Part shown: positions 3,001-6,000 of the stretch, in pieces
Numbering within the stretch: the stretch's first letter is position 1
Layout of the letters: each line of letters opens with the position of its first letter
NCBI GenBank assembly: GCA_965223505.1
Contig: CBDCWP010000041.1
Coordinates: 1 to 64,000 of the forward strand
DNA length: 64,000 nucleotides
Source: Planctomycetota bacterium
GTDB taxonomy: Bacteria > Planctomycetota > PLA2 > JAEUHO01
Direction of reading: 5' to 3'
Program-made: the position numbers

Positions 3001-6000
3001 GTTGCGTTCGAGGCGCTCGACGACCGCATCGACGACGTGCAGGCACGGATCCTCACCGGCGCAGGTTCCGCCCTGCGCTCGGAGATCGCGGAGATCCGCA
3101 ACCAGGTGATCTCCATGCGGCGCTACCTCGCGCCGCAGCGGGACGCAGTCGCGCGCCTTCAGTCCGAGAAGGTGCCCTGGCTCACGGCCGTGCACCGCGA
3201 GGAGCTGCGCGATCTGGCCGACCGTACGACGCGACGGGTGGAGGACCTCGAGGCGGCGCGCGACCGGGCCACGGTCGCGCACGAGGAGCTGACAGGCCGC
3301 ATGGCCGAACAGATGAACCGGACCATGTACATCCTGGCGCTCGTCGCGGCGATCTTCCTCCCGCTCGGGCTCATCACGGGTCTGCTCGGCATCAACGTGG
3401 GCGGCATGCCCGGCGCCGAGAACCGCGCCGCGTTCTGGATCGTCTGCGGCCTGCTGGTTGCGCTTGCCGCGACCCAATGGTGGTGGTTCAAGAAGCGCCG
3501 ATTGCTCTGACCCACCGGCGGGCTACTTGCCCGCGGGAGACCTCCTTTTCTCCTCGCGGGCGTGAAGCCACTTGCGCCACGCCGCCGGCGTCTTGCCGGC
3601 ATCTTCGCCGGCAATCGCGGCGAGCGCTTCGTGCAGCGCCGCGCGCTCGGTCGTGGAGATCACGCTTCGCGTGGAGAGCACCTTGACGTCCTGAACGGCT
3701 CCAGCCTGGAGCGTGCCGATGATGGGATCGGCAATGAACGCCGTTCAGGCCACCTCGACGTCGAAGTCCTGCAGATAGCTTCGTTGCGTGATCTGCGCGA
3801 AGTAGCTGCGCGGCGCGTTTCCGCTCGAGCGCTCCCACCGCTTGACGAGGTACGGCAGCGCCCGTTCGTCCTTGGTTCTCCCGAGCGCCTTCGCCGCGCG
3901 CACACGGGTCGCGACGCTGCGGCTCTTCAGGGCCTCGACGAGGCGGTCGAACGCATCGCGCTTCACCGGCCTTGCGGGCGAGCGTTTCGGCTTCTCGGCG
4001 CCCCCCACGACGATCGCCAGCTGCTTGCGCGCCGCCTCCTTCGTGAGCCAGGCGTCGTCCACTCTGACGTAGCCCAGCGCCCGGCGCGCAGCGGCGTGAT
4101 CCGCGTCCTCGGCGAGCACCCGTTGGTAGAGCTTGCGGGCGTCCGCGGCTCGTCCGTCGTGCTCGCAGCGAAGCGCTTCGGCATAGAGTGCGCGGGTATC
4201 TACTTCGTCGTCGCCCGCGACTGCGGTCGCAACGAGCGTCGTCACGACGAGCGCGGTGATGATGTTCCGCATGTGAACCTCCCTGGTACACGATGCGGGA
4301 CGCGCCCATCCCTGGAAACGCACGCGGGCGGATCTTGCAGACGCAAATCGCGGCGGACAGCGCGGAGCGGCTCCTATGCGCCCATGTGGAGCGCGACGAG
4401 CGCTTCGAACTCCTCCTGGCACTCGCCGCAGATCTCCAAGTGCTGCCGAACGATTCTAAGATCCACCGCGGTCTCACCCCCGATGTCGACATACTCGAGA
4501 TACGCGGATACGCGCGCGAGGAACTCGTCGCAGTCGATCTCCGAGGGTTCGGTCGCCGCGACGACGCGTAGGAGCTCCTGGAGCAGGGAGAGGTCCACCT
4601 TCATGATCGGTTCGACGCTCCTGCCAGCTCGGTTCTTACCTCCCGGTCGCTGAACCCGGCCTCGTTCAGCGCTCGTTTGAGCTTCTTGCGAGCATCGTGA
4701 TGAAGCTTGTAGAGGGCGTTTGGGTTGGTTCCAAGGCGCTGAGCGAGAACACGCGAGGGCACCCCCGCCAGCTCGCCCAGGACCGCACACCGCTGCCGAT
4801 CCGTAAGCACCTCCTCGATGGCGGCATGCAGCGTCGCGAGCAAGGATCTGCGCTCGGCCGCGCGACCGGGATCGACCGGGTTCTCTTTCAGCGGTTCGAC
4901 GCCCGGCAGCTCGAGCACTCCGACAGGTCGAAGGTCGTGCCGGCGACGTCTCAGCGCGCTGAGCGCGACGCGAACGGCCACCGCGGTTGCCCAGGTCGTG
5001 AAGCGGCTGTCGCCGCGGAACGTGTCGAGCCCTTTCAGTACACGCATCACGGCGTCCTGCGTGAAATCGTCGAGATCCGAGTCGCACACTTCCGCACGGC
5101 CGCGAAGTACGCGTGCCAGCACCCTGCGTAGGTAGGCGCACAGCTCGTCGGCGCATGCGTCGTCGTTCTTCCGAAGCTCTTCGAGCCACTGCGCGTTCGT
5201 TCTGTGCTGGAGTACGGTGGGCACGTCTCTTCCTGTGCCTCCCGCAACCACGACGGGGAAGTGCGGACGGGGTTTCCGCTTTTCCGGAAAGCGCGGGTAA
5301 GGATCCGGGCGCTGCGGCGACCAACGCATGAGTGCCGAGTGGCACGAACCCCACAACCCATTCAGGAGTGACCCATCATGGTCCGATTCAGCATGGTTGC
5401 AGCGGCTCTTCTCGTCGCCGTGGCTCTCTCTTCCTCATTCGACGCGGGCGCCGCGCCGTCGACCGCCGAGGGCGAGAGCCGCGCGTACCTGCATAGCTAC
5501 AACCTTCCGAGCAGCGGACTCGCGATCGACGGCTACTGCCCCGTCGCGTACTTCGCGGTGAACAAGCCGCTGCGCGGCAAGAAGGAGTTCTCGTCGACCT
5601 TCGACGACGTGACCTACCACTTCGTCTCCGCGGATGCCAAGAAGACCTTCGACAAGAACCCCGAGAAGTACCTCCCGGCCTACGGCGGCTGGTGCGCCTT
5701 CGGGATGGCGGTCTCCGACAAGTTCCCGGTGGACCCGACGAACTTCAAGATCGTCGACGGCCGGCTCATGCTGTTTCTCAAGAACAAGAACGTGGACGCG
5801 CGCGCGCTCTGGGACAAGGGCGACGAGCGCGAGCTCGTGCGTAAGGCCGAGGCCCACTGGAAGAAGGTCCAAGGCTAGACTCGGTCCGACGCCCCGGGGC
5901 CGGGCCGCGGCCCCGGGACTTCGAGAACGTCATGCTCGAGAACCTGCTGACAGAGATTCGGAAGTGCGACGTCTGCGCGGAGCATCTGCCGCTCGGACCG

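Follow-up and report, generated by a model that had tools for sequence, protein, structure and literature searches.

To our knowledge, almost all known bacterial selenoproteins carry selenocysteine (Sec) in a redox motif, where Sec normally sits, and searches for new selenoproteins demand a conserved Cys partner. In fdhF the UGA codon itself is paired in the lower stem, as it is in the gene described here. Programmed read-through of UGA is known from the A1 protein of phage Q-beta, in which Trp is inserted without SelB or a SECIS element. Among cell-envelope proteins, the GSU2204 family of MtrB/PioB-type outer-membrane beta-barrels appears as a selenoprotein in Table 1 of PMC13188914. Neither 'secretin' nor 'HEAT' is mentioned in a 2026 review or in the BSepDB paper.

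Here we describe a gene with an in-frame TGA in a stretch of 64,000 nucleotides from a Planctomycetota bacterium (contig CBDCWP010000041.1, positions 1 to 64,000; hereafter the window). A preliminary description had proposed that this UGA is recoded, and its claims are taken up below where the results bear on them.

The gene, its product and the Sec machinery of the genome

The features of the gene and its surroundings are listed in Table 1. In translation, the context of the TGA is ..QDFDVEVA-TGA-TAFIADPIIG.., and the tryptic peptide across the site is SYLQDFDVEVA-U-TAFIADPIIGTLQAGAVQDVK. No redox motif is evident around the site. A codon-usage score trained on long ORFs of the same genome gave log-likelihoods of 0.33 upstream and 0.22 downstream of the TGA in the frame of the gene, and negative values in the other five frames; the GC3 was 0.88 and 0.82, respectively. 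The frame is open and coding on both sides of the TGA, in agreement with what had been stated before.

Table 1. Location of the gene, its predicted protein and RNA elements, and selected neighbours in the window
Feature	Position	Strand	Basis
Complete gene of 249 codons, one of them an in-frame TGA, terminated by TAG	3523..4272	minus	Frame translation, coding score
Putative signal peptide MRNIITALVVTTLVATAVAG, no lipobox Cys	4213..4272	minus	By eye: hydrophobic core and AVA-G site
HEAT repeat region, aa 105-150	3823..3960	minus	PF13646 HEAT_2, E 9.1e-07, 29.5 bits (cut-off 27.7)
Long beta-hairpin, strands aa 155-175 and 178-197	3682..3810	minus	DSSP of AlphaFold2 model, secretin alignment
In-frame TGA, codon 176, beta-hairpin apex, proposed Sec codon	3745..3747	minus	Frame, AlphaFold2, homologs
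5' arm of 10-bp long-range stem, CCUGAACGGC, includes UGA	3740..3749	minus	Folding
RNA hairpin 1, UGCCGAU-CCCAUC-AUCGGCA, 7 bp, -8.9 kcal/mol	3714..3733	minus	Folding
RNA hairpin 2, GCUCC(A)-GGC-(U)GGAGC, 5-6 bp, -7.0 to -7.4 kcal/mol	3698..3712	minus	Folding
3' arm of 10-bp long-range stem, GCCGUUCAGG, with rare Val codon GUU	3690..3699	minus	Folding
zf-HC2 anti-sigma-like small protein, upstream neighbour	4377..4610	minus	PF13490, E 7.9e-05
ECF-type sigma factor, upstream neighbour	4604..5356	minus	PF04542 Sigma70_r2, E 5.5e-12
selB, Sec-specific elongation factor, 42 kb from the gene	46214..48112	minus	TIGR00475, 335.7 bits (cut-off 242.25)

From the N to the C terminus, the predicted protein consists of a signal peptide, TPR-like helices, a HEAT repeat, a long beta-hairpin and two C-terminal helices. 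The domain search returned a weak TPR match alongside HEAT_2; with HEAT_2 over its cut-off and helices at residues 26-65 and 104-147 of the structural model, a HEAT/TPR helical repeat domain is present. An AlphaFold2 model based on a 79-sequence alignment reached a mean pLDDT of 87.5, contrary to the earlier statement that AlphaFold gives no confident fold, and the TGA codon falls at the apex of the hairpin in this model. A Foldseek search of the whole model against the PDB returned nothing at E <= 0.001, only TPR/HEAT/alphaRep-type look-alikes, all with E >= 0.13. Cys36 is present in L006, L036, L038, L100 and L104.

Residues 152-197 were 54% identical over 46 aa to residues 826-871 of a secretin of the same organism (E 1e-13), a segment that falls inside the PF00263 domain of this secretin (807-985). 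The segment aligns to Gly267-Arg293 of the phage f1 secretin pIV, in which Gate 1 is given as Gly267-Gly297 (PDB 7ofh; PMC8563730). In this alignment, which is approximate at the level of loops, the TGA/Gln position faces Glu280, in the middle of Gate 1. Judged by sequence, the hairpin of the window gene and the Gate 1 hairpin of the secretins of the same organism are homologous. The similarity is confined to these 46 aa, and the PF00263 profile gave no match to the window protein at E up to 1; the protein is a TPR/HEAT protein of 249 aa, not a secretin. A membrane-insertion segment, which the preliminary description placed behind the TGA, is unsupported, as the motif aligns to Gate 1 of pIV, part of the inner barrel, and not to the beta-lip.

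No conserved neighbourhood was found for the TGA genes: the window gene lies next to sigma and anti-sigma genes, other TGA genes next to DUF4143, Lon-like, SecDF or aminotransferase genes. ABC-2 transporters adjoin tandem arrays of family genes.

The selA, selB and selD genes of the genome all scored above their cut-offs in profile searches, selB being located in the window itself, and tRNA-Sec is the only tRNA of the genome with anticodon UCA. Of 40 genomes of the order, 38 contained selA and 29 a tRNA-Sec above the gathering score; being nearly universal, the Sec trait is not discriminating in its distribution. Among 1861 confident ORFs of the genome, 1037 end in TAG, 696 in TGA and 121 in TAA. 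Reassignment of TGA in the genetic code was ruled out by the 696 ORFs that it terminates.

TGA at the hairpin apex across the family

A regular-expression census of the motif in the genome (G000) yielded 11 copies, with CAG in 8, GAA in 1 and TGA in 2 (C41:3747, the window gene, and C44:189396). Both TGA copies reported before were found, but the previous census had counted 11 Gln or Glu copies in addition to them; the regular expression used here was narrower. The same motif position is occupied by TGA in another 12 HEAT-type genes, all distinct, of which 7 are genome-derived and 5 come from metagenome contigs. The orthologs already named from G019, G020, G023 and G036 were confirmed, and G033, G032 (two copies) and the 5 metagenome sequences are additions. 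For the second gene, on C44, TGA was present at the motif position in 6 of 6 orthologs (G000, G001, G002, G003, G007 and G026); those of G001, G002 and G026 had been described, and G003 and G007 are added here.

The stop at the site was TGA in 13/13 HEAT-type and 6/6 C44-type sequences, although TAG is the commonest stop codon of this genome. Genome scans allowing TRN at the site gave 47 hits, of which 15, sorted by judgement, were family-like; these comprised 7 TGA and 8 TGY, and no TAA, TAG, TGG or TAY. Metagenome scans of the same kind gave TGA in 6/6 hits. In each of the 13 HEAT-type and 6 C44-type sequences, 40-75 codons of conserved open frame follow the TGA, the protein identity among the sequences being 30-45%, and the downstream part can be aligned to non-TGA relatives up to the C-terminus (..ER..AL..AG.D.G....W..W). 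Pairwise dN/dS values (Nei-Gojobori, 12 TGA genes) were uninformative and were dropped, because dS was saturated near 1; the closest and sole usable pair, L036/L103, had a dN/dS of 0.32 upstream and 0.40 downstream of the TGA. Gene callers truncate these genes: among the best 150 of 1440 HMMER hits this concerns P0002 and 10 further 50%-identity cluster representatives, the 10 stopping exactly at ...DVEVA.

Among 50 distinct family genes from loci fetched within the order, the site holds Gln in 31, Ala in 5, Ser in 4, Lys in 1 and TGA in 9. One Cys form, P0005 (..DFDVEVACTSFIADP..), known from its protein sequence, is full-length (44% identity over 213 aa, E 1e-45) and is the only one with Cys among 106 motif copies in the best 150 of 1440 HMMER hits; none of these copies has Trp. 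Among the orthologs of the C44-type TGA genes, L084 has Cys. In the closest relatives of the TGA genes the site holds Ser (TCN/AGT), Ala, Lys or Cys rather than Gln, and TGA is a single substitution away from TCA or TGY. The earlier objection that all paralogs have Gln, three substitutions away, and that Sec for Gln has no precedent was therefore wrong. Ser, Ala and Cys, which interchange at the site, are small residues, as would be predicted for insertion of Sec. On the family tree the TGA label requires 6 changes; this tree comes from a quick search, and the count of origins could be too high owing to gene conversion between tandem paralogs.

RNA structures downstream of the TGA

In the window gene, the loop of hairpin 1 begins 18 nt past the UGA and contains no G. 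This hairpin codes for the peptide I-A-D-P-I-I-G and has counterparts in non-TGA paralogs. The loop of hairpin 2 (AGGCU/GGC), 37-38 nt past the UGA, is a candidate SelB-binding loop and lies at the far end of the spacing range published for bSECIS elements (PMC13188914). Similar second hairpins occur at +41/42 in L013, L020 and L022. The long-range fold, in which the UGA itself is paired, has an MFE of -30.9 (z -3.8), and none of 200 shuffles was as stable. Because its 3' arm shares 2 nt with hairpin 2, the two structures compete. The GUU codon in this arm (5.6% of Val codons) pairs with AAC after the UGA; GUU is found at the same column in the TGA genes L006, L013 and L020, which the tree sets apart; of about 35 non-TGA genes that have Val at this column, 1 uses GUU. 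A rare-codon cluster in hairpin 2, GCU-GGA-x-GUU, was discarded as not significant, because 27 of the 249 codons are rare and another such cluster lies at the 3' end.

The published bSECIS model sets an energy limit of -7.5 kcal/mol or lower (PMC13188914). The window gene narrowly misses this model, as hairpin 1 is correctly placed but its loop is devoid of G, and hairpin 2, although its loop is of the correct kind, has a spacing of 37-38 nt and an energy above the limit. An Rfam scan of positions 3400-4400, with E up to 10, gave only sub-threshold chance matches and no SECIS family.

For the family as a whole we used a strict, perfect-stem version of the published model in which no bulges are allowed (PMC13188914). 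This test was passed by 9 of 19 TGA forms and by 7 of 17 redox-motif TGA candidates of this genome, compared with a single one of the 41 non-TGA paralogs and with 5.5% of random coding sites (165 of 3000). All f2-type TGA genes (8/8) have CCG GUG, which places GGU in the loop at +24..26, and the C44-type TGA genes have GG(U/A)-containing loops at +25/26 (6/6). GG was found in loop 1 of none of the five f1-type TGA genes, i.e. the window gene and four relatives. That the loops lack a constant GGU, as had been noted, thus holds for these five, but not for the f2-type and C44-type genes. In the encoded peptide, P-V-G-G occurs in 5 f2-type TGA genes, and Gly is found there in none of 106 motif copies of non-TGA proteins; P-R-V-G (CCC CGG GUC GGG) is confined to C44-type TGA genes. 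The Cys form L084 has no hairpin.

Stability did not separate the two groups: the mean MFE was -25.2 for non-TGA paralogs and -25.5 for TGA forms. This agrees with the earlier remark that conserved amino acids, here the A-D-P-x-V-G peptide, give rise to the first hairpin. In RNAalifold analyses of 5 f1-type and 6 C44-type sequences the hairpins were conserved and compensatory changes were seen in 4/22 and 1/8 pairs per set; because the covariation terms were positive (penalising) in both sets, these hairpins are no proof of structure.

Decoding of the UGA and comparison with known systems

The conserved, UGA-only site with coding sequence on both sides makes recoding, as proposed in the preliminary description, well supported over a split or decayed gene. 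We consider it probable that the UGA of the window gene is decoded as Sec, and hold the same reading with greater confidence for the family than for this gene alone. The gene product would be an exported TPR/HEAT protein, its C-terminal half a beta-hairpin of about 40 residues homologous to secretin Gate 1, and the UGA at the apex would be read as Sec by tRNA-Sec and SelB. The signal used by the family would lie in the downstream coding sequence, as an RNA hairpin that arises from the A-D-P-x-V-G peptide 12 nt past the codon, with a loop that appears sharpened to the G-G-U type in most TGA forms. In the window gene the signal is probably composite, made up of hairpin 1, the AGGCU-loop hairpin 37 nt downstream and the 10-bp stem containing the UGA. 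Because a SECIS-like hairpin is already in place family-wide, the codon, we propose, has changed several times between Ser, Ala, Cys, Lys and Sec. Partial termination at the UGA, giving a 175-aa product, is also to be expected, as in other bacterial selenoproteins.

The conserved UGA-specific signature, the Sec machinery, the Cys forms, the hairpins of the relatives and the place of the codon in the model are observations; the insertion of Sec rather than another residue in the window gene, and its role there, are what we infer. A real rival is a leaky stop independent of SelB, since the hairpins of the window gene narrowly miss the canonical SECIS model. Mostly a 175-aa TPR/HEAT form would then be made, with read-through by a near-cognate tRNA (e.g. 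tRNA-Trp) at a fixed isoform ratio. An A follows the UGA in all but 2 of the 13 HEAT-type genes (11) and all but 1 of the 6 C44-type genes (5), and UGA-A is a weak terminator according to work in E. coli; the 10-bp stem around the UGA could slow the ribosome, and read-through likewise predicts a conserved downstream frame. However, TGG was found in 0 of the 21 family-like hits of the genome and metagenome scans, although it is one transition from TGA and TGY (Cys) does occur, and the site otherwise holds Ser, Ala, Cys, Gln or Lys, never Trp. The TGA relatives also carry canonical hairpins with a GGU loop at the spacing of a SECIS, as often as true selenoprotein genes do, and make protein-level sacrifices that build these hairpins. 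Judging from the structural model, moreover, a product ending in one strand of the hairpin seems unlikely as a designed isoform. Overall, we regard a leaky stop as unlikely.

A true stop, with the downstream part a remnant or a separately translated small ORF, would fit the end of the protein at residue 175 assigned by gene callers and an in-frame, GTG-started ORF of 52 codons further downstream. This is improbable and already largely refuted: the frame is conserved behind the TGA in all HEAT-type and C44-type sequences, the downstream coding score is positive, no start codon follows the TGA, the codon is TGA without exception despite TAG being the majority stop, the break falls midway in a confidently predicted beta-hairpin, and the dN/dS of the closest pair is similar on each side. 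An assembly or sequencing error in this metagenome-assembled genome is hardly conceivable, as the same TGA is found in independent assemblies (7 genome-derived genes and 5 metagenome contigs), even though in the window the TGA is covered only by contigs of the probable source sample (X1 and X2, 0 differences) and those of a second sample leave 3666-3789 uncovered.

If decoding as Sec is correct, the use of Sec here would be unusual, apparently non-catalytic and repeatedly evolved. Tentatively, a latent SECIS provided by the GC-rich codons of A-D-P-x-V-G may have made the apex codon a hot spot of repeated Sec gain and loss in two families. At such a gate-like tip a non-catalytic Sec could form diselenide or selenylsulfide locks where tips meet, in an oligomer or with a secretin, or it could make completion of the hairpin dependent on selenium supply; of this wider reading, hot spot and role together, we are doubtful.

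A family whose Sec position is shared chiefly with Ser, Ala and Gln would escape searches that demand a Cys partner, and annotation pipelines currently split or truncate its TGA genes. If confirmed, it would be a cell-envelope selenoprotein family with Sec at a structural apex, and a natural case of a SECIS arising from a pre-existing, protein-constrained hairpin, which bears on how new Sec codons evolve without a lethal-stop stage. Its loops at 18-22 nt and 37-38 nt would also be natural SECIS variants for probing the tolerance of planctomycete SelB.

With the secretins, the window protein shares the Gate 1 hairpin sequence and, in the model, the long beta-hairpin, but it is without the outer barrel, Gate 2, the N domains and the C-terminal secretin motif. 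GSU2204 and the window protein are both predicted cell-envelope selenoproteins, and the entry for the former in Table 1 of PMC13188914 gives no Sec-related redox motif; the likeness is one of table description, family and fold being unrelated. With selenoprotein genes of the fdhF type, whose SECIS lies within the ORF (as described in PMC13188914), the window gene has in common the in-frame UGA, a hairpin directly downstream of it within the coding sequence, tRNA-Sec, SelA, SelB and SelD, and an aligned Cys form. It differs from these genes in lacking UxxC/CxxU or another redox motif and in its G-containing loop, 37-38 nt from the UGA and behind an intervening hairpin; its family differs in that Ser, Ala, Lys and Gln, and not Cys alone, alternate with Sec at the site, and in that the SECIS stem is a by-product of a peptide motif, present in non-Sec paralogs as well. 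With the read-through of Q-beta A1 the gene shares an in-frame UGA and a conserved extension behind it; the Cys forms, the GGU-loop hairpins and the absence of TGG forms among the hits set it apart and point to Sec.

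An in-frame TGA in a selenoprotein-rich genome

The gene for the putatively secreted HEAT/TPR-repeat protein was confirmed to carry an in-frame TGA with coding sequence on both sides, as the preliminary description had it. Over the 249-codon frame the codon-usage score, for which the long ORFs of the genome (G000) served as training set, was positive upstream (+0.33) and downstream (+0.22) of the TGA, and it was negative in all five other frames. The sigma and anti-sigma genes next to it possibly form one operon with the TGA gene. The neighbourhood of the TGA genes varies, with sigma/anti-sigma genes upstream in the window and other contexts elsewhere, and does not inform on function.

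Features of the window and of other contigs of the genome (positions without a contig name are in the window)
Feature	Position	Strand	Remark
TGA gene	4272..3523	-	249 codons when TGA is read as a residue
In-frame TGA, codon 176	3747..3745	-	sole in-frame TGA; ..SYLQDFDVEVA-TGA-TAFIADPIIG..
Hairpin 1	3733..3714	-	7 bp, -8.9 kcal/mol, spacing 18 nt, loop CCCAUC without G
Hairpin 2	3712..3698	-	loop A-GGC-U, 37-38 nt from UGA, -7.0 to -7.4 kcal/mol
ECF sigma factor and small zf-HC2 anti-sigma-like gene	4377-5356	-	directly upstream of TGA gene, gap ~100 nt
CorA-family transporter	2464-3507	+	convergent with 3' end of TGA gene; stops 15 nt apart
RimK-type ATP-grasp protein with TrkA_C domain	1193-2521	-	past CorA-family transporter
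selB	46214-48112	-	
selA and selD	C8:36851-39232		adjacent
Second TGA gene (L106/L042)	C44:189088-190680	-	531-aa two-hairpin protein
Examples of the 26 TGA sites	C5:23891, C10:185965, C30:72520, C30:73464, C44:181841, C44:227969		
tRNA-like genes (ARAGORN)	C13:102042-102132, C14:20110-20181, C21:479064-479147		

Besides the sel genes, of which selD carries an in-frame TGA of its own, the genome has a tRNA-Sec that is its only tRNA with a UCA anticodon. The Sec trait is order-wide, so its presence or absence across the order is not discriminating. A codon-score scan returned 26 TGA sites with coding signal upstream and downstream, and 17 of these have UxxC/CxxU-like motifs; by its in-frame TGA candidates this is a selenoprotein-rich genome. 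Hairpin loops after these sites read, for example, GGUCU, GGAUC, GGU, GGUC and GGUUC, and the loops of the positive-control hairpins start 22-31 nt from the U of the UGA. Two of the sites, C30:72520 and C30:73464, lie in neighbouring UG(P/R)C paralogs. ARAGORN also reported three tRNA-like genes with undetermined anticodon (loops catc, tg and tcgg).

The apex codon and its evolution

A regular-expression census found 11 copies of the motif in the genome, with CAG (8), GAA (1) or TGA (2) at the apex; the two TGA copies are in the window gene and at C44:189396. The HEAT-hairpin family was found in 40/40 genomes of the order (here the whole class), and of 50 distinct genes from the fetched loci 31 had Q at the apex, 5 had A, 4 had S, 1 had K and 9 had TGA. 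In total 13 HEAT-type TGA sequences were collected, five distinct metagenome sequences included. A HMMER search of 1.8 billion representatives gave 1440 hits, and among the best 150 ten other proteins have ...DVEVA as their very last residues, their gene callers having stopped at this position. The 106 motif copies in these best 150 of 1440 hits had Q (79), S (13), A (7), K (2), N (2), T (1), M (1) or C (1) at the apex, and none had Trp. A Cys form, P0005 from an ENA assembly, is a full-length homologue of the window protein (213 residues aligned at 44% identity, E 1e-45), its Cys being known from the protein sequence.

The TGA that had been described in orthologues of the second gene was present in 6/6 (G000, G001, G002, G003, G007, G026). 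This gene has Gly at the apex of hairpin copy 1 and TGA in copy 2, and two Q-type paralogs lie directly upstream of it. L084, from another planctomycete, is a Cys orthologue, set against TGA in G000, L081/L110 and four others. Other Planctomycetota hold a two-hairpin family of 490-660 aa (L062, L065, L075, L076, L078, L079, L080), in which Cys can replace Gln at the apex of either motif copy. Taken together, the census, the orthologues, the metagenome sequences and the proteins ending at ...DVEVA show that the observation is real and goes far beyond what chance would give.

An ordinary stop was rejected on four grounds: the frame is open and alignable for 40-75 codons past the TGA in 19/19 TGA sequences (30-45% identity among these) and aligns with non-TGA relatives up to the C-terminal W..W helix; dN/dS in the sole unsaturated pair was 0.32 upstream and 0.40 downstream; the stop at the apex was TGA in all 19; and two collection scans, of genomes and metagenomes, allowed any T-R-N codon at the apex. 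In the genome scan the 15 family-like hits of 47, as judged by their flanks, had TGA (7) or TGY (8) and none had TAA/TAG, TGG or TAY; the other 32 lay in unrelated contexts, including all five TAA/TAG, four TGG and seven TAY hits. The metagenome scan gave TGA in 6/6 hits. The stops of 1861 confident ORFs of the genome were TAG (1037), TGA (696) and TAA (121). TGA is usually the commonest stop in genomes with a GC3 of about 0.9; here it is TAG, despite a GC3 near 0.9, a preference possibly connected with the extensive use of UGA to encode Sec.

On a quick tree built by maximum likelihood (91 rows, with SH-aLRT support) the TGA label changed six times, each change forced by well-supported branches. 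The TGA genes comprised one clade of seven f2-type sequences and five separate genes of the f1 type, to which the window gene belongs. Each of the latter adjoins Ser, Ala, Lys or Cys forms; the TGA genes group among these and not among the Gln forms, contrary to the earlier statement that only Gln occurs at the site. The tandem HEAT-hairpin arrays L049 (G019), L050 (G020) and L051 (G023), which adjoin ABC-2 transporter genes, read Q, U, then A or K at the apex; the middle gene encodes Ser or Ala there in other genera. Because the middle TGA gene groups with its own tandem neighbour, gene conversion could inflate the number of TGA origins. A conservative count is three to four TGA events, plus the separate C44-type family. 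A pre-existing hairpin would make a change from TCA or TGY to TGA at the apex survivable, and older TGA lineages may afterwards have tuned the loop.

Hairpins downstream of the UGA and its decoding

The family hairpin GCCGAY-loop-RUCGGC, which encodes A-D-P-x-V-G, starts 12 nt past the apex codon whether or not that codon is TGA, and the two groups of genes do not differ in overall fold stability; the earlier caution that the hairpin by itself is no proof of a SECIS was right. CCG GUG, present in 8/8 f2-type sequences, places GGU at +24..26, and 6/9 Q-type genes from that family of genomes share it. In five f2-type sequences the strand residue after P-V is Gly, closing a CGGU tetraloop; Gly was found there in none of 106 non-TGA motif copies. 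All six C44-type TGA genes have stems of 4-7 bp with loops at +25/26 (UGGAU, CGGGUC, AGGU, GGUC, CGGGUC, CGGGU), built by P-R-V-G-type codons that are absent in the C44 Q paralogs. The hairpin of the C44 gene itself is canonical SECIS-like (7 bp, UGGAU at +25), and the Cys orthologue L084 has none. The bSECIS model, applied strictly with perfect stems required and with limits from PMC13188914, was passed by 9/19 TGA forms of the family, 7/17 redox-motif TGA candidates of the genome (controls), 1/41 non-TGA paralogs and 165/3000 random in-frame coding positions.

In the window gene, a 10-bp stem is formed by CCUGAACGGC, which contains the UGA, and GCCGUUCAGG. Folding of the 66 nt gives z = -3.8, and 0/200 shuffles were equally stable. 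GG is missing from loop 1, as in the four other f1-type TGA genes. The loop of hairpin 2 fits N-G-G-N-N', its position and energy lying just beyond the limits of the bSECIS model. Three f1-type relatives have a second hairpin at +41/42, with loops AGUU, GGUC and AGGU and differing stem sequences; in the fourth, L099, inspection by eye shows only a weak hairpin of 4 bp, its GGUGC loop lying at +46. RNAalifold recovers the closing stem and hairpin 1, with no net covariation support. GUU, a rare codon for Val (5.6% genome-wide), stands in the window gene, L013 and L020 at the column that pairs with AAC after the UGA.

The main alternative to Sec is a SelB-independent leakiness of the UGA. It draws on the weak point of the Sec reading, namely that both hairpins of the window gene miss the bSECIS model; non-canonical SECIS elements are not rare, because the BSepDB paper gives canonical ones for 87.4% of its entries. 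On these two considerations we regard decoding of the window gene's UGA as Sec as fairly probable, with a non-canonical, candidate SECIS. For the family, the case for Sec is stronger than for the window gene alone. The conserved UGA recoding site is real; of the recoding proposed in the preliminary description, UGA recoding stands, with Sec its most likely form, and the Gln-only premise falls.

A secretin Gate 1 hairpin on a HEAT/TPR protein

Pfam detected in the window protein a HEAT repeat (105-150), weak TPR signals and nothing else. The AlphaFold2 model, built from a 79-sequence alignment, was confident (mean pLDDT 87.5, pTM 0.54). It runs from an N-terminal hydrophobic helix, by inspection a predicted signal peptide, through TPR-like and HEAT helices to a long beta-hairpin of two 20-residue strands (155-175 and 178-197) and two C-terminal helices. 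Codon 176 is modelled as the first residue of the two-residue hairpin turn.

Over residues 152-197 the window protein shares 54% identity (E 1e-13) with residues 826-871 of another product of the genome, that of a 997-codon frame, which is a true secretin (PF00263 at 807-985, E 5e-25). The motif region of the secretin was aligned by HMMER to phage f1 pIV (7ofh, E 1.2e-10), whose chain numbering matches that of the pIV paper (Arg293, Asn295, Gly297). The motif corresponds to Gly267-Arg293, the Q/TGA position lying opposite Glu280. Gate 1 of pIV is a loop that runs from hinge glycine 267 to 297 and reaches the pore centre (PMC8563730). Since the alignment falls within it, the motif is the Gate 1 hairpin and not the membrane-inserting lip, so that the membrane-insertion segment proposed earlier finds no support. 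Not a secretin itself, the window protein belongs to the HEAT/TPR proteins and bears a copy of this hairpin. The hairpin tips would meet if the hairpins either dock onto a secretin gate or assemble in the manner of one. Five of the TGA forms have a Cys in the first TPR helix. A 400-aa HEAT-type Q paralog (C38:260085) and the true secretin C44:61791, otherwise unrelated, share 23 consecutive identical residues in this region (LSYIQDFDVEVAQTSFIADPIVG), which points to co-evolution of the two hairpins, to gene conversion or to their physical pairing.

No description of a selenoprotein family of this secretin-hairpin kind was found in the literature on selenoproteins with secretin or Planctomycetes. 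The words 'secretin' and 'HEAT' do not occur in the text and word-searched Table 1 of a 2026 review (PMC13188914) or in the BSepDB paper, whose supplementary family lists, like those of the review, could include such a family. The sole mention of 'secretin' found in a selenoproteome paper is a supplement title on a Prx-like/Secretin_N fusion (PMC2398784). The window gene most likely represents a new family of selenoproteins, and the C44 gene a second family related to it. Unusual are its non-redox position at a hairpin apex, the alternation with Ser, Ala, Cys and Gln, and a proto-SECIS encoded by the peptide itself.
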